From Candidatus Merdinaster equi (GTDB lineage Bacteria; Bacillota; Clostridia; Lachnospirales; Lachnospiraceae), in the NCBI GenBank assembly GCA_018064935.1, contig JAGHUF010000004.1, positions 21,432-85,431 of the forward strand: a DNA stretch of 64,000 nucleotides. Reading direction: 5' to 3'. Under the pieces are notes generated by a model. It searched no databases. It saw nothing but the letters and a program-made list of their open reading frames with translations, and was not told the origin of the DNA. Each line of letters begins with the position of its first letter. The first letter of the stretch is position 1. The position numbers and the translations under genes were made by a program. Of the stretch, positions 36,864-42,860 are shown one piece after another.

Positions 36864-38477
36864 TTAATCGTCGCCCCTATCCCACTTGTCCGCAAGTGAA
36901 GTAATCTGATCTGCAAACCTTGCAAGGTCTTTGTTTGCTCCACCTTCGTTCCTTCGTATAACAGCCAGGAGGTGCTGACCAGCGGCGAGAAGTCTTGCAA
37001 AGACATCTGATGCCTTCTGCGCTTTCTTCTTTGGCGCGATAGGCACTGGAACTGCGTCATAATCAATACAGTTATTGGCAAGATCATAAACAGAACCACT
37101 GTAAGGTGCGTAGGTATCATAATCATATTCATCACGCAGGCAGGCCGCAAAGCTCTCTGTTACAGAATCTTCTCCGTGGACAATAAATACTTTATCCGGT
37201 TTTCTTTCGAACTTAGAAAGCCATTCAATCAATCCGTTTTTGTCAGCATGTCCTGAAAGTCCGGCAAGAGTCTTAATTGTCGCACGAACATTGATTGTCT
37301 CACCGAACAGCTTTACTTCTTCTGCGCCATCGACAAGCATTCTTCCAAGTGTTCCAACCGCCTGATAACCTACAAACAGGATAGTACATTCCTCTCTCCA
37401 GAGATTATGCTTAAGATGATGTCTGATACGCCCTGCCTCACACATTCCTGACGCAGAAATGATAACCTTGGGTGTGTCATCAAAGTTAATCATCTTAGAT
37501 TCATCAGAGGTAATTGCGAGATTTAACCCCCTGAACGTGATTGGATTAATTCCTCTTCTGACGATTTCCATCGCCTCTTCATCAAAACAGTCTGCTATAT
37601 TCTTCTGGAATATTCCCGTCGCCTCCACAGCCAGCGGGCTGTCGACGTACACTGGGAAATCAGGATAATTGCGTACAAGCTTGTCCTCTTTTATCTGTCT
37701 GATAAAATACAGAATCTCCTGTGTTCTTCCAACCGCAAAAGAAGGAATAACCACATTTCCCTTTTTCTCAAAGGTCGTCTCGAGGACGCTCGCAAGCTCC
37801 TTCACGTAATCAACACGCTCCTTGCTGTGAAGCCTGTCGCCATACGTGGATTCCATTACAACATAATCAGCTTCAGCAGTCGCGATTGGATCCTTTATCA
37901 GCGGCTGGTTCTTATTACCAATATCCCCCGAAAATACGATTTTCTTATCGATTCCCTCTTCTGAAACCCAGATTTCAATACTTGCAGAGCCAAGCAAATG
38001 TCCTATGTCAGTAAATCTGATCTTTATTCCATCACACAGCTCTATTGTATCTCCGTAGCGAACCGGAACCAGAAGTTTAATGGTACCATCTGCATCTTCC
38101 ATTGTATATGCAGGTTCAACGAGTTCTGTGTTTGAACTTCTCTTATTCTTACGATTCTTCCACTCACACTCAGCCTGCTGAATGTGCGCACAGTCACGGA
38201 GCATGATGCTACATAAATCTACGGTTGCAGTAGTTGCAAATATTTGCCCCCTGAATCCGTTAGCATACAATAGCGGAAGCATTCCAGAATGGTCAACATG
38301 TGCATGCGTAAGGAGCACATAATCAATCATTGATGCCGAGACAGGCAAATCCACATTTTCAAAAACATCAACGCCCTGCTGCATTCCGTAATCAACAAGG
38401 ATATTTTTACCACAGGCTTCCAGATAATGACAGCTTCCAGTAACCTCATGGTCTGCACCGATAAAATTCAGTTTCAT
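36864..38477 (-). CDS. MBL-fold beta-CASP RNA-metabolising hydrolase
   Basis: MKLNFIGADHEVTGSC...LLTHAHVDHSG (HxHxDH), followed by beta-CASP and RNA-specificity-like regions. Start is set at 38477 behind AGGTGGGGAAGGT. The track start at 38543 has no RBS. Confidence 0.8.
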   Translation of the reverse strand: MKLNFIGADHEVTGSCHYLEACGKNILVDYGMQQGVDVFENVDLPVSASMIDYVLLTHAHVDHSGMLPLLYANGFRGQIFATTATVDLCSIMLRDCAHIQQAECEWKNRKNKRSSNTELVEPAYTMEDADGTIKLLVPVRYGDTIELCDGIKIRFTDIGHLLGSASIEIWVSEEGIDKKIVFSGDIGNKNQPLIKDPIATAEADYVVMESTYGDRLHSKERVDYVKELASVLETTFEKKGNVVIPSFAVGRTQEILYFIRQIKEDKLVRNYPDFPVYVDSPLAVEATGIFQKNIADCFDEEAMEIVRRGINPITFRGLNLAITSDESKMINFDDTPKVIISASGMCEAGRIRHHLKHNLWREECTILFVGYQAVGTLGRMLVDGAEEVKLFGETINVRATIKTLAGLSGHADKNGLIEWLSKFERKPDKVFIVHGEDSVTESFAACLRDEYDYDTYAPYSGSVYDLANNCIDYDAVPVPIAPKKKAQKASDVFARLLAAGQHLLAVIRRNEGGANKDLARFADQITSLADKWDRGDD

Positions 38478-38570
38478 ACCTTCCCCACCTTTCCTGTTTT
38501 CAATTGCATAAAACCCCAAAAATACATAAATATTGTACCACATAAGTGCCTATTTGTGCATATATATGCT

Positions 38571-41300
38571 ATGATAGAAAGCATGACAGAGCAGAAAAAT
38601 AGCAGAATCACTATCGGCATAGTCGCCCATGTAGATGCTGGAAAAACAACATTATCAGAGAGCCTTTTATTTGGTTCAGGTGTTATTTCGTCTTCAGGCA
38701 GAGTGGATTCGGGAAACACGTTCCTGGATACTGATGTCGTCGAAAAAGAACGTGGCATCACCATATATACCAAAAATGCTCGAATTCCTATTTCGGGGGA
38801 CAGACAAGCCGGCGAATTCATCCTTATTGATACCCCCGGTCATGTTGATTTTGGTCCCGAGATGGAGCGCGCTCTGTCCGTGATGGATTATGCAATTCTG
38901 CTGATCAGCGCACCCGAAGGAATCCAGTCGCATACTCGCACTCTGTGGAGTCTTCTCAAATCCTATCGCATCCCAACACTCATATACGTGAATAAAACAG
39001 ACATAAAGGGCGTGGACTGCGATAGCCTGATGTCACAGATTAAAAACAAACTGTCGGACTGCGCCATTTCTTTCAAGGGTCTTCAGGAGACGCACGAAAT
39101 CGGCTTTGAGCTCACGTCCGAAATGTGCGAAGAAATTGCTGCTACTGACGAAGTTCTTATATCTGAGTTTCTTGAATCGAATGAACTCTCAATGTCATCA
39201 GTACAGAGCGCTTTTAGCAATCGTTCTTTTTTTCCAGTATTATTCGGCAGTGCATTAACACATGAGGGTACTGCTTCTCTTTTATCTGTAATAAACCGCT
39301 TATTTATGACCTCCGAAGCAGGTGCGACTGATAATCAGTGCGAACCTGGCGGAATAATATACAAAATCACCTACGATAAGCAGGGAAAGCGATTGGCCTT
39401 CCTAAGAGTCACAAGCGGAACCCTGAGGGTGAGAAGTGTACTCGGGGATGAGAAGATTACTGAGATAAGAATCTATTCCGGAGAGAAATATTCACAGGTA
39501 GGGGAGGTATCGGCCGGTGAAATATGTGCCATTCCCGGACTCACTTCTTATCAGGCAGGTGACACATTTGGCAAATCGCAGACGATAAAAAGTAGGCTCC
39601 TTACACCAGCAATATCTTATGCCGTTCATTTTCCTATTGAACTAAACCAGAATGTCAACACTGACACGCGTGAAATGCTGCGAGTTATGGAACAGCTCAC
39701 GGAAGAAGATCCTTCTCTTGCCACCGAATATAATGAGCAGATGAGAGAGATTCAGGTTCGGCTTATGGGTGATATCCAGACTCAGATACTGAAGCGAACT
39801 TTGCTTGACCGATTTGGACTCAATGCTGAATTTGGAGAAGGAAAAATCTGTTACAAAGAGACGGTTGACGCTTCTACCATTGGTGTTGGGCACTTCGAGC
39901 CCCTTCGCCATTATGCTGAGGTTCAGCTGAGAATTGAGCCACTGCCACTGGGAAGTGGTCTGGAATTTGCATCAGAAGTATCCGAGGATTTGCTTGATAA
40001 GAACTGGCAAAGATTAATAATGACACATCTCCAGGAGCGCGAACATCGCGGTGTTTTAACTGGCGCCCCTATTACTGATATCAGATTCACAATTGTCGCT
40101 GGAAGAGCGCACAACAAACACACTGAGGGCGGCGATTTCAGGCAGGCCACCTACAGGGCTATACGACAGGGACTTATGAAGCTATTCGCCACAGACAATT
40201 GCAGACTTTTGGAGCCTTACTACGACTACACCTTAAGACTTCCTGAGTCCAATGTCGGACGTGCAATGACCGATATTTCTGCCATGCCGGGAACCTGTAA
40301 TATTTCAGAGAATGATTATGATAACGGAATCACTGTTCTGACAGGAACTGCCCCTGTCAGTGCGATGAACCACTATACCTCAGATGTAATCGCCTATACA
40401 AAAGGTCTTGGTCAGCTGTCCTTCAGCGTATCTGGCTACGGACCATGTCACAACGAGGCAGAGGTTCTGAGTTCTACACGCTATAACCCTGATGCAGATT
40501 TGCGAAACCCTTCCTCATCAGTATTCTGTTCTCACGGAGCAGGAACAGTTATCCCCTGGAACGAAGTTGATTTGTATAAGCATCTCGATTATTCGGACGG
40601 CTATTTCACAGACAGAAGTTTGCAGGACTCGGAAGAAGAAAGTGCCGCCGCCAACAAGCAGAGGCGTTTATTCGAAAATATGAATAACGCAATCAGCACC
40701 GAAGAAATTGATTCCATTCTTCAAAAGAGTTCCCATGCTAACGCAGAGGGAAGAAAAGGTTCCTATAAAGGTATCTCCGAATCTCTGAGAAGGACAAGGC
40801 TTGAAAAATCAAAGTCTGATTCTAGTTCAGAAGCAAAGTATAAAGGTTCTCCGAGAAAAGAGCCTTATCTTCTCGTGGATGGCTATAACGTAATCCATGC
40901 CTGGGCGGAGCTGAGCAGCTTAATGGAAGCCTCTATCGATGCCGCTGCCGGAAGACTCAATGATATCCTCAGTAGCTATCAGGCCATTACAGGCGTTCAT
41001 CTGATTGTCGTTTATGATGCATATAAAGTAAAAGGACATTCCACAGAGGAAATGTCCTATCACAATATCACAGTTGTATATACTCGTGAAGCCCAGACTG
41101 CAGATCAGTATATAGAGAGATTTGCTCATGAGAATGCATCGAAATACGAAATTACCGTCGTTACATCCGATGGGCTAGAACAGATAATAATAAGAGGTGC
41201 CGGTGCACTTCTCATCTCCTCAAGAGAATTCGAAGATATTGTCAATCAGAGGAGAACTGATTTCAACGCCACACACAACATTACGAGCGATGAGGAGTAG
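38571..41300 (+). CDS. TetM/EF-G-family translational GTPase fused to a C-terminal Rae1/YacP-type NYN ribonuclease domain
   Basis: G1 AHVDAGKTT, G2 RGITI, G3 DTPGH and G4 NKTD, then EF-G-like domains II-V. A Ser/Lys/Glu-rich linker follows. Residues encoded by 40860-41297 read PYLLVDGYNVIHAW...LIVVYDAYKVKG...ITVVYTREAQTADQYIE...VVTSDGLEQ, which aligns motif for motif with B. subtilis YacP/Rae1. The start could be 38571 or 38583, and the RBS is weak. Confidence 0.8.
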   Translation: MIESMTEQKNSRITIGIVAHVDAGKTTLSESLLFGSGVISSSGRVDSGNTFLDTDVVEKERGITIYTKNARIPISGDRQAGEFILIDTPGHVDFGPEMERALSVMDYAILLISAPEGIQSHTRTLWSLLKSYRIPTLIYVNKTDIKGVDCDSLMSQIKNKLSDCAISFKGLQETHEIGFELTSEMCEEIAATDEVLISEFLESNELSMSSVQSAFSNRSFFPVLFGSALTHEGTASLLSVINRLFMTSEAGATDNQCEPGGIIYKITYDKQGKRLAFLRVTSGTLRVRSVLGDEKITEIRIYSGEKYSQVGEVSAGEICAIPGLTSYQAGDTFGKSQTIKSRLLTPAISYAVHFPIELNQNVNTDTREMLRVMEQLTEEDPSLATEYNEQMREIQVRLMGDIQTQILKRTLLDRFGLNAEFGEGKICYKETVDASTIGVGHFEPLRHYAEVQLRIEPLPLGSGLEFASEVSEDLLDKNWQRLIMTHLQEREHRGVLTGAPITDIRFTIVAGRAHNKHTEGGDFRQATYRAIRQGLMKLFATDNCRLLEPYYDYTLRLPESNVGRAMTDISAMPGTCNISENDYDNGITVLTGTAPVSAMNHYTSDVIAYTKGLGQLSFSVSGYGPCHNEAEVLSSTRYNPDADLRNPSSSVFCSHGAGTVIPWNEVDLYKHLDYSDGYFTDRSLQDSEEESAAANKQRRLFENMNNAISTEEIDSILQKSSHANAEGRKGSYKGISESLRRTRLEKSKSDSSSEAKYKGSPRKEPYLLVDGYNVIHAWAELSSLMEASIDAAAGRLNDILSSYQAITGVHLIVVYDAYKVKGHSTEEMSYHNITVVYTREAQTADQYIERFAHENASKYEITVVTSDGLEQIIIRGAGALLISSREFEDIVNQRRTDFNATHNITSDEE

Positions 41301-42696
41301 TAGCTGTCTCATACTCTCTCATAAGTCTAAGCATCGCCCCGGTGCAGACTGCAGTAATCAGGGTTCCCTCTGGCGCATACTCTTCACTGAGAACTTGCGC
41401 ATTTTTATGAAGACGGTTTAATACATCTCCTGCGCTATACGGAACTAGTGCAGTGATTTCCTCTGCATCTCCGTAAAGCTGTTCTGATATCATAGATAAA
41501 AGCTCATCTATTCCATCACCTGTTTTAGTTGAAACATAGACAATATTGTCGTTCACTCTTACTGGTGCACTTATTTTTTTCTCAATGAGATCTGACTTGT
41601 TGAGAATATATATTCTTGGAATGTCTCCAGCTTCCAGCTCATCCAGTGTCTTTTCTGTTATGTCTCGATGCTGCTTATGATATGGGTCCGATGCATCCAG
41701 AACGATAAGAAGCAAGTCAGCATATTTCACTTCCTCAAGCGTTGACCGAAACGCCTTTACCAAACCATGCGGAAGATTCTCAATAAACCCAACTGTATCT
41801 GACAAAAGAAAATCCTGCCTGTTTGCCCTATATATATGCCTAATTGACGTATCGAGTGTCGCAAAGAGCATGTTCTTCTCAAACACCTGCTTTTCCTCTC
41901 TCGCATCCGGCACATACTTGGACAAGGTCAACAGTCTGTTCATCAGAGAGGACTTGCCTGCATTCGTGTAACCAACCAGCGCCGCATGGGGAATATCACT
42001 CGATTTTCTCCCCTGTCTCTGAACCTGACGTGTCCTGCTGATAGTAGCCAGTTCTCTCTCAAGTTCAGCAATTCTGTGGCCTATTTGTCTTCTATCAAGT
42101 TCAAGCTGTTTCTCACCCACACCTTTGTTTGACCTAGAACCACTACCTCCACCCTGTCTTCCAAGGTGCTGCCACATTCCAGTAAGCCTTGGAAGCATAT
42201 ACTGCAGATAAGCCGACTCTACCTGCAATCTCGACTCCCTCGTCTTAGCTCTTCTGGAGAAGATTTCCAATATAAGTCCTGTTCTGTCCCAGACCGGAAT
42301 TCCTATCATCTTCTGTATATTCTTCATCTGAGCGGGGCTTAGATTGTCCTCGAATACACAATATTCAGCTTCAAGCACTCTCGCTGTTTCAGCTAATTCT
42401 TCGATTTTTCCACGGCCTAAATATGTCCCACTATCTGGATGGGGCAGTGTCTGCGATAAAAAAGCAACCACATCCATATCGCAGGCATCTATAAGACTCT
42501 TCATTTCATCCATCGAATGCTCAAAATCATCTGCCCTCTCATCTGTACGAAGCCCTGCCAAAATCGCGCGCGGTCTGCACTCTTCTTCCGGAATATCTAT
42601 TTCTATCATTTCTCTTGGCATACTATCCTCATTTCCAAGCAATTTGTTGCGGAAAACAAACGCATCAGCGCTATTCTTCGCACTATGTTCTTTCAT
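41281..42696 (-). CDS. hflX: GTPase HflX
   Basis: HflX N-domain, then GYTNAGKSSL, DTVGF and NKSD. Start is set at MKEHS (42696). The 12 extra codons of the track ORF lie inside the palindrome. Its 3' end overlaps the convergent GTPase-NYN gene by 20 nt. Confidence 0.85.
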   Translation of the reverse strand: MKEHSAKNSADAFVFRNKLLGNEDSMPREMIEIDIPEEECRPRAILAGLRTDERADDFEHSMDEMKSLIDACDMDVVAFLSQTLPHPDSGTYLGRGKIEELAETARVLEAEYCVFEDNLSPAQMKNIQKMIGIPVWDRTGLILEIFSRRAKTRESRLQVESAYLQYMLPRLTGMWQHLGRQGGGSGSRSNKGVGEKQLELDRRQIGHRIAELERELATISRTRQVQRQGRKSSDIPHAALVGYTNAGKSSLMNRLLTLSKYVPDAREEKQVFEKNMLFATLDTSIRHIYRANRQDFLLSDTVGFIENLPHGLVKAFRSTLEEVKYADLLLIVLDASDPYHKQHRDITEKTLDELEAGDIPRIYILNKSDLIEKKISAPVRVNDNIVYVSTKTGDGIDELLSMISEQLYGDAEEITALVPYSAGDVLNRLHKNAQVLSEEYAPEGTLITAVCTGAMLRLMREYETATTPHRS

Positions 42697-42860
42697 GTCG
42701 TAGTCTCTATCGTGAGTATAATCGCAAACCATAAGAAGGTGCTTAGGAGCCGCCGGTACTTAGACGCTGTATTTTGGCGTCTTATGTACCGCTGCGTGCG
42801 ACTAGCAGCGAGAGCGTGCCTTCGTTGGTTGCGATTATACTCACGATTTCTTTTTCGCAT
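42693..42860 (-). CDS. candidate 55-codon upstream ORF (MRKRNREYNRNQRRHALAASRTQRYIRRQNTASKYRRLLSTFLWFAIILTIETTT), stop overlapping the hflX ATG (ATGA)
   Basis: My own translation; it falls below the ORF-track length cutoff. There is no convincing RBS, and the reading frame could be a by-product of the palindrome. Confidence 0.2.
   Translation of the reverse strand: MRKRNREYNRNQRRHALAASRTQRYIRRQNTASKYRRLLSTFLWFAIILTIETTT
42709..42848. repeat. 140-nt imperfect palindrome (outer arms atcgtgagtataatcgcaa / ttgcgattatactcacgat) in the hflX - purF-like intergenic region
   Basis: The outer 19-22 bp pair perfectly. Inner segments gaagg(t/c) and ggtac.t.agacgc also pair. The apex is near 42770-42776. 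On the plus strand the structure is followed by tttcttttt. Confidence 0.7.

Follow-up and report, generated by a model that had tools for sequence, protein, structure and literature searches.

A 64-kb stretch of the genome of Candidatus Merdinaster equi (contig JAGHUF010000004.1; the whole stretch is hereafter called the window) encodes a translational GTPase of the EF-G/Tet type that is joined, in one polypeptide, to a Rae1/YacP-type NYN ribonuclease domain. The gene occupies positions 38571–41300 of the plus strand, stop codon included, as delimited by the list of open reading frames (ORFs), by Pfam and by a 100% match to protein P0001, and lies within a single plus-strand ORF spanning 38427–41300. 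Its product belongs to a very large family of TetM-like–NYN_YacP fusions of Clostridia, of which it is an ordinary representative. Fusions of this kind were described by Atkinson 2015 (PMC4342817) and Matelska 2017 (PMC5499597); the architecture, also noted in a preliminary description of this DNA, has thus been in the literature since 2015 and is not a discovery. The reading that we tentatively favour, at somewhat less than an even chance, is that the fusion is a chromosomal housekeeping surveillance factor: the GTPase would dock on a stalled or collided ribosome and tether the NYN domain so that it can cut the mRNA at the ribosome boundary. Several observations support this reading. Both halves appear, from their conservation across 259 relatives, to be under strong joint purifying selection. 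In structural models, the NYN fold resembles only Rae1 among the entries of the PDB, and the body resembles ribosome-bound EF-G, EF-2, and TetM. By analogy, free Rae1 acts on stalled and collided ribosomes and feeds trans-translation (PMC12407103, PMC13622287), which suggests a similar place of action for the tethered domain.

Two ATG codons are candidate starts of the gene. The one at 38571 yields a protein of 909 amino acids, to which the residue numbers given here refer, and the one at 38583 yields the 905 amino acids of the NCBI model P0001, which is listed for a metagenome-assembled genome of the Lachnospiraceae and with which the sequence is 100% identical. An AlphaFold2 model of the full-length fusion, built on 114 sequences, has a mean predicted local distance difference test score (pLDDT) of 86.5 and a predicted template modelling score of 0.67. 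Starting from the N-terminus, a G domain extends over residues 12–244 (38604–39302; Pfam GTP_EFTU, E = 6e-48) and is followed by domains II (residues 261–334) and III (residues 361–422), which together cover 39351–39836 (EF-G_D2 and EFG_III; pLDDT mostly above 85). Domain IV (residues 426–537; 39846–40181; EFG_IV, E = 1e-19) and domain V (residues 545–629; 40203–40457; EFG_C, E = 1e-15) complete the body. The G1–G5 motifs are intact (AHVDAGKTT, RGITI, DTPGH, NKTD, and GSA), with the catalytic His91 located in DTPGH. In an alignment of 259 family members with identities as low as about 39%—the basis of all residue frequencies given here, motif counts having been made on 268 sequences—D22, K25, T64, D87, G90, K142, and D144 are each present in 259/259 relatives and H91 in 258/259; taken over all G1–G4 residues and His91, retention ranges from 254 to 259 of the 259. 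With its G1–G5 motifs, the histidine of DxxGH, a domain II, and EF-G-type domains III–V, the protein carries the features of a translational GTPase of the EF2 family. A Foldseek search with the modelled body places ribosome-bound EF-G at the top and returns a probability of 1.0 for EF-G, EF-2, and TetM. Judged by these residues, the GTPase is apparently active.

The tip of domain IV bears two motifs that set the family apart. The first, G438-V-G-H-F-E-P-L-R-H-Y-A-E450 (39882–39920), is family-specific, and its residues H441, E443, P444, L445, and H447 each occur in 258/259 relatives. The second, G511-R-A-H514-N-K-H-T-E-G-G-D-F-R-Q-A526 (40101–40148), was located by alignment with TetO and EF-G at the position of Tet loop III; here, H517 is found in 258/259 and D522 in 259/259 relatives. 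Across the family, the near-invariant consensus reads GxGHFEPLRHYAE (438–450) and GxxHxKHTEGGDFRQ (511–525). Such invariance suggests that the tip touches the decoding site in a specific way.

The Rae1/YacP-type NYN domain comprises residues 764–901 (40860–41273). Pfam NYN_YacP (PF05991; E = 1.6e-44) matches residues 767–901 with 152.3 bits against a cut-off of 24.6, covering model positions 1–137 of 166, and an alignment with Rae1/YacP of Bacillus subtilis (5MQ8/5MQ9) gives 43% identity over 122 amino acids (E = 1.4e-21). The motifs LLVDGYN, VVYDAYKVKG, TADQYIE, and VVTSDG are all found. The preliminary description had recognized a GTPase with G1–G4 and domains II–V joined to a YacP/Rae1 NYN domain, and Pfam, the motifs and the alignment with the Rae1 crystal sequences agree with it; the extent that it gave for the C-terminal domain (40860–41297) and the motifs that it listed there are likewise correct. 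Four acidic residues, D770 (40878–40880), D816 (41016–41018), D845 (41103–41105), and D867 (41169–41171), align to D7, D53, D81, and D104 of Rae1, and each is present in 256–258 of the 259 relatives; the loss of these residues, which had been considered, has therefore not taken place. D770 and D845 are the counterparts of Rae1 D7 and D81, and the D7N D81N mutant of Rae1 is catalytically dead (PMC10351889). By its conserved residues, then, the NYN domain is catalytically intact. In an AlphaFold2 model this part has a pLDDT of 91–97, and when residues 616–909 were modelled and compared with known structures by Foldseek, 5MQ8 and 5MQ9 were the sole matches with E < 1e-3 (TM 0.66–0.75; 0.74–0.75 with a root-mean-square deviation of 2.7 Å for the best).

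Despite the common NYN fold, the shared acidic residues, and a presumed dependence on the ribosome, the fusion differs from Rae1 of B. subtilis in several respects. Rae1 is a free protein of 170 amino acids encoded in a cysS-mrnC-rlmB-rae1-sigH cluster, whereas its counterpart forms the C-terminus of a 909-residue GTPase, preceded by an N-terminal region of about 760 amino acids. The fusion gene lies elsewhere, with thyA, beta-CASP, hflX, and purF as neighbours. The fused domain also ends early: the last 30 or so positions of the Pfam model (138–166), which correspond to the C-terminal tail of Rae1, are missing.

The region between the two halves is more elaborate than a simple connector. A charged linker of about 110 amino acids had been proposed; the distance from domain V to the NYN domain is in fact about 134 amino acids and includes a conserved extension, two helices, and further motifs. 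The extension (residues ~620–681; 40428–40613) reads GYxPC626H627NEEEV..YNPEADxRNPSSSVFC653SH655GAGTVIPW663..H671, is conserved in the family, and is absent from EF-G and Tet proteins. It is modelled with a pLDDT of 84–95 in the full-length protein but only 38–60 without the GTPase body and therefore probably packs against that body. Foldseek returned no match for the extension within the model of residues 616–909. C626 and C653 are conserved in 91–93% and H627 and H655 in 78–84% of the relatives. One might guess at a zinc site formed by these four residues, and a guess it stays because 7–9% of the members do not have the cysteines. The extension is followed by a tether (residues 682–763; 40614–40859), delimited by AlphaFold2 secondary structure, pLDDT, and conservation. 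It comprises a long helix (682–704), a second helix (710–721) with the motif I-S-T-E-E-I-D-x-I-L, and a disordered basic stretch of about 40 residues carrying the motifs HAN..GR..SYKGIS and YKG. Its length is variable—across the family, 84–216 amino acids (median 118) separate the extension motif from the NYN domain—but a tether is always present and basic, with a median linker isoelectric point of 9.6. One relative, P0187 (746 amino acids), is without most of domain V and the extension and retains the EEVDxIL..HKGIS linker motifs together with the NYN domain.

The family to which the protein belongs is large. A search of 5.8 billion proteins retrieved at least 120 full-length relatives, 48–62% identical and 856–1040 amino acids long, all with PF05991. 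Among representatives clustered at 50% identity, at least 150 clusters show the architecture, nearly all with 800–1000 amino acids, and the representative at rank 150 still scores 575 bits. When one genome per species was scanned, at least 600 matching stretches were found, of which the best 80 loci underlie all locus counts given here. These 80 loci come mostly from Lachnospiraceae (Roseburia, Butyrivibrio, Pseudobutyrivibrio, Blautia, Enterocloster, Hungatella, and Mediterraneibacter) and also from Desulfitobacterium, Desulfosporosinus, Clostridium punense, C. fessum, Anaerovorax, and Acetivibrio ethanolgignens. They include isolates (Mediterraneibacter glycyrrhizinilyticus and Enterocloster aldenensis) and a complete chromosome; an isolate of Agathobacter rectalis also has the fusion. 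Given the size of the family and its status as a core gene in abundant gut Clostridia, what it does matters for the quality control of translation in the microbiome.

This spread also settles a concern of the preliminary description, namely that the fusion might be an assembly or frameshift artefact uniting two separate genes. GTPase and NYN domain were recovered in one frame, as a single tblastn match, at 74 of the 80 loci, isolates and the complete chromosome included. The remaining six gave split matches, mostly owing to insertions or to a second GTPase gene nearby, two of them with a change of frame. No adjacent pair of separate GTPase and NYN genes was seen among the loci examined, just rare forms without the NYN domain. 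The same in-frame fusion in so many genomes largely rules out an artefact or a split gene in the window, even though the source is a metagenome-assembled genome. A related proposal, that the protein is a toxin or an anti-phage nuclease acting by abortive infection, could draw on A. rectalis NZ_CP143948.1, where a BrnT/CopG toxin-antitoxin pair lies just upstream of the fusion homologue. Yet PADLOC models matched 0 families at E <= 1e-3, the 80 loci showed no antitoxin-like conserved neighbour, and no match on a mobilisable plasmid was obtained. Taken together, an artefact or a toxin is very improbable as an explanation.

A search for mobile carriage, covering plasmids and carried out by tblastn with the C-terminal 294 amino acids against 72,556 of them, yielded only two matches of nearly full length, each on a large replicon that is non-mobilisable. 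NZ_CP143948.1 of A. rectalis is listed by PLSDB as a 252-kb non-mobilisable 'plasmid' and carries housekeeping genes. The fusion is a core chromosomal gene and not a mobile resistance cassette: its housekeeping contexts, which differ between genomes, argue against a mobile determinant and, with at least 600 places and no mobile-element signature, fit a core cellular role.

These contexts bear on a second alternative, according to which the fusion would act as a tetracycline ribosomal protection protein and add an RNase step to resistance. The idea was suggested by Atkinson 2015, who put the fusion proteins in the Tet subfamily (PMC4342817), and the product name assigned by PGAP points the same way. 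It has some support in similarity scores. The best full-length matches among characterized proteins are Tet(O) (261 bits) and Tet(M) (259 bits), both at about 29% identity, with EF-G following at about 209 bits, and the top NCBIfam model is tet_protect (NF012153). However, the score against this model (420 bits) is far under its cut-off of 775, and the remaining Tet models are missed as well: NF033148 (TetM/W/O/S) with 305 against 1100 bits, NF000120 with 291 against 900, NF012154 with 263 against 1425, and NF012155 with 252 against 1420. The protein also remains under the cut-offs of the EF-G models NF009381 (317 against 583) and TIGR00484 (261 against 659).

Domain IV speaks more directly against a protection protein. 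Loop III of this domain (L505, S508, P509, and V510) is functionally the most important element of Tet(M) (PMC4750697). In the fusion, the L505-Y-Y-S-P-V-S of Tet(M)/(O), by which the drug is displaced, is replaced by R512-A-H-N-K-H-T, so that Y506-Y507-S508-P509-V510 are exchanged for another, family-invariant sequence in a loop of equal length; the pattern YSP[VI]S, sought in the family sequences, occurs in 0/268. Taken alone, domain IV is closer to EF-G of Thermus thermophilus (40 bits) than to TetO/TetM (29 bits), and H514 aligns with His573 of EF-G and is kept in 244/259 relatives. Compared with the Tet-type architecture of about 640 amino acids (3J9Y, 4V6V), all five domains of the translational GTPase are present, but 280 further residues follow, and the short C-terminal helix of Tet proteins gives way to a different and larger extension of 60 amino acids, the tether, and the nuclease. 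Tet resistance genes are typically found on mobile elements, whereas the fusion is chromosomal. EF-G, in turn, shares with the fusion the domain order, the GTPase motifs, and the histidine mentioned above, but differs in its tip loop I, which is 4 residues shorter in the fusion and different in sequence, and in having none of the additional C-terminal modules. A tblastn search of the window for another NYN or EF-G-like gene gave no match, and as the fusion is the only EF-G-like gene there, it is regarded as a paralogue rather than the housekeeping fusA. Altogether, these comparisons point to a distinct clade of translational GTPases, Tet-like in its body but comprising no Tet protein, and leave the protection hypothesis with little probability. 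The label 'ribosomal-protection-type' given in the preliminary description is accordingly not borne out by the scores or the loop.

A consequence concerns annotation. PGAP names the 933-residue homologue of A. rectalis (NZ_CP143948.1, L091 6138–8939) a 'TetM/TetW/TetO/TetS family tetracycline resistance ribosomal protection protein', and other members go by 'NYN domain-containing protein' or 'translation factor GTPase family protein'. On sequence grounds, the resistance name, which the NCBI pipeline gives to many members, is likely a systematic mis-annotation. Since members so named fall under the cut-offs and have no Tet loop, resistome counts made on gut metagenomes may be inflated.

How the fusion might work is best discussed against what is now known of free Rae1. 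An earlier proposal had the enzyme cleave mRNA in the ribosomal A site, and the preliminary description relied on it. The proposal has since been revised by the group that made it: the cut is now placed at the tail of the stalled ribosome, 12 nucleotides upstream of the A-site codon (PMC12407103). According to a 2026 preprint, Rae1 acts on collided ribosomes and makes substrates for transfer-messenger RNA (tmRNA) in a B. subtilis pathway called 'CART' (PMC13622287). Structural work on ribosome engagement was still in progress in the 2025 Rae1 paper. The 2026 survey places Rae1 in more than 87% of Firmicutes, using hmmsearch at E < 1e-10 with no length filter (PMC13622287); in the absence of such a filter, GTPase-NYN fusions were probably counted as Rae1. 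The fusion is not mentioned in the recent Rae1 papers.

For the fusion, the following sequence of events may be envisaged. First, the GTP-bound GTPase would dock in the factor-binding site on a ribosome unable to proceed, with domain IV in the A site of the 30S subunit. Domain IV of EF-G and of Tet proteins is in fact known to enter this site. Two docking modes are conceivable. In one, EF-G-like, the factor would engage a collided, translocation-blocked ribosome; in the other, Tet-like, it would bind a stalled ribosome whose A site is empty and cut at that ribosome's own mRNA entry. The former would fit the new Rae1 data best, as the mRNA entry of the collided ribosome faces the exit of the stalled one ahead. 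With domain IV filling the A site, the tethered NYN domain could hardly cut there simultaneously. Instead, the tether of about 80 amino acids, part helix and part disordered and basic, might allow the nuclease to get to mRNA at the ribosome's edge. The likeliest cut would fall between the stalled ribosome and the collided one following it, as with free Rae1. GTP hydrolysis would then free the factor, and the cut mRNA would pass the upstream ribosomes to tmRNA/SmpB, as in the 'CART' pathway of Rae1. In such a scheme, the GTPase would stand in for the ribosome-targeting determinant of free Rae1. GTP-dependent delivery of a nuclease to stalled or drug-bound ribosomes, as envisaged in the preliminary description, remains reasonable in outline; the model of Rae1 action on which it was built has been superseded, and its Tet label was over-confident.

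A bolder version of the same idea is possible, though clearly less probable than the general reading. The fusion would be a GTP-gated, single-polypeptide machine for no-go decay, in which an EF-G-derived sensor binds stalled or collided ribosomes unable to translocate or decode, reads this state through its invariant tip and its extension and only then licenses the tethered Rae1 nuclease to cut at the ribosome boundary, and which would provide the main route, or a main route, from collision to trans-translation in Lachnospiraceae and related Clostridia. If true, the fusion would be a 'Rosetta stone' indicating that nucleases of the Rae1 type operate from the factor-binding side of the ribosome, and a core gene of gut commensals would prove to be routinely miscalled as tetracycline resistance in resistome surveys. 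Even short of this, the fusion offers an evolutionary hint as to where on the ribosome Rae1-type nucleases work and an experimental handle in the shape of a ribosome-anchored form.

Two groups of known systems offer parallels to the proposed factor. In Pelota/Dom34–Hbs1 and aPelota–aEF1α, a translational GTPase likewise delivers an effector to the stalled ribosome. These systems serve no-go decay, consist of two separate proteins, and employ a GTPase of the EF1A family and an effector that mimics an A-site tRNA and has no nuclease activity. The fusion differs from such pairs in that its GTPase belongs to the EF-G family and is covalently joined to a nuclease domain. SmrB of Escherichia coli and the eukaryotic Cue2 and NONU-1 resemble the proposed system in another way: an SMR nuclease is brought to stalled or collided ribosomes, cuts mRNA at the boundary, and feeds rescue (PMC12407103, PMC13622287). 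Here, the likeness is one of analogy and not of homology, since an SMR rather than an NYN fold is used and recruitment relies on protein hooks or ubiquitin-binding domains rather than on a GTPase.

A number of points weigh against a surveillance nuclease. No experimental study of the fusion was found in the literature searched, which did not cover Leroy 2017 (EMBO J) or Anantharaman & Aravind 2006; the statement of the preliminary description that the architecture is functionally uncharacterized agrees with this result. The 80 loci contain no conserved operon partner linking the fusion to tmRNA, SmpB, or rescue factors. Moreover, mRNA, rRNA, and tRNA are all candidate substrates, and the argument from geometry is one that we infer. 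Finally, the relatives P0177 and P0255, which are without an NYN domain, imply that the GTPase has a function of its own for which cleavage is not required.

The last point leads to an alternative in which the GTPase is the functional unit—a specialized EF-G paralogue acting in translocation, recycling, or stress—and the NYN domain is an accessory with an RNA-binding or regulatory role and little or no catalysis. P0177 (651 amino acids; L088 5001–6956) and P0255 (706 amino acids; L089 3832–5952) retain the domain-IV motifs as well as the SVFCSHGAG extension, beyond which they soon terminate with neither tether nor NYN domain; both genes are internal to their contigs, and no separate NYN gene is annotated nearby. 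The paralogues EF-G2, LepA, and BipA, too, work without nucleases. Forms without the NYN domain are, however, rare among the top 150 representatives, and the retention of the four acidic residues in about 99% of the 259 fused relatives is hard to explain without catalysis. A role of the GTPase alone is therefore a small possibility. Another exceptional relative is P0249 (873 amino acids), in which the GTPase and extension run into a stretch similar to class-IV aminotransferases. As the fusion gene of locus L005 is followed by an Aminotran_4 gene, P0249 may have arisen by read-through or by misassembly.

Genomic context bears on a further alternative, ribosome biogenesis or the processing of rRNA and tRNA. 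Here, the GTPase would probe immature or damaged subunits, and the NYN domain would trim or cleave rRNA in maturation, quality control, or decommissioning. YacP was first predicted to be an rRNA/tRNA processor owing to its operon with mrnC and rlmB (PMC5499597), an operon seen in B. subtilis. In the window, the fusion gene is flanked by genes for a beta-CASP RNase and for HflX, which would suit such a role. The C-terminus of EF-G/Tet-type factors emerges near h44 of 16S rRNA and H69 of 23S rRNA. On the other hand, Rae1, the sole characterized member of the nuclease family, performs translation-dependent cleavage of mRNA, linkage of the fusion to mrnC or rlmB was observed at 0/80 loci, and neither the beta-CASP nor the hflX neighbour is conserved. 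A function in rRNA or tRNA processing is on balance unlikely.

Of the two flanking genes, the hflX-like gene (41281–42732, minus strand; Pfam GTP-bdg_N, GTP-bdg_M, MMR_HSR1, and HflX_C) converges on the fusion gene, the final 20 nucleotides of which (41281–41300) lie in both. As HflX is a ribosome-associated GTPase, its adjacency in the window and in a few relatives lends some support to a surveillance function: hflX was found within 8 kb at 4/80 loci against about 0.4 expected by chance, some of these loci being closely related. In two of the contexts retrieved by exact protein, it lies directly upstream on the same strand (L002) or near the fusion (L006/L007), and it is also near the fusion in L008, L009, L017, and L043. 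Beyond this weak enrichment, hflX was rejected as a functional partner. The beta-CASP/RMMBL metallo-RNase-type gene on the other side (36864–38477, minus strand; Pfam Beta-Casp, RMMBL, and Lactamase_B) is divergent from the fusion gene, encodes 537 amino acids from an MKLNFIG start, and is separated from it by a gap of about 93–105 nucleotides; a homologue occurs near the fusion at 3/80 loci (L038, L040, and L046). The thyA gene and a purF-like gene are located farther out in the window.

Clustering of neighbours over the 80 loci and six exact-protein contexts revealed no recurrent operon partner; for the protein of the window itself, the exact-protein look-up gave no record. The largest clusters consist of paralogue-rich families, namely GGDEF/EAL-type membrane proteins (as judged from sequence) and ABC ATPases. 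A gene for a CxxCxxCC protein (PF03692, YkgJ-like) was noted at 4/80 loci and in L001 and L006. It is directly upstream of and divergent from the fusion gene in L001 (9198–9848, minus strand), L006 (6301–6945, minus strand), and L008 (5528–6181, minus strand), and in L006 and L008 it stands between hflX and the fusion gene.

Some features of the surrounding DNA may be added. No good Shine-Dalgarno sequence precedes either of the two candidate ATG codons. Within 38567–38585, TGCTATGAT forms an extended −10-like box that ends 7 nucleotides before the ATG at 38583, the start chosen by NCBI. A scan for consensus promoters did not flag this site, and the promoter and terminator scan was uninformative. 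It may be that the fusion mRNA has only a very short leader or none at all. No Rfam family reached its gathering score anywhere in the 64-kb window. GC skew is about −0.2 over most of the window and about 0 at 10–12 kb and at 38–46 kb, the latter segment containing the fusion and the purF-like gene, both on the plus strand.

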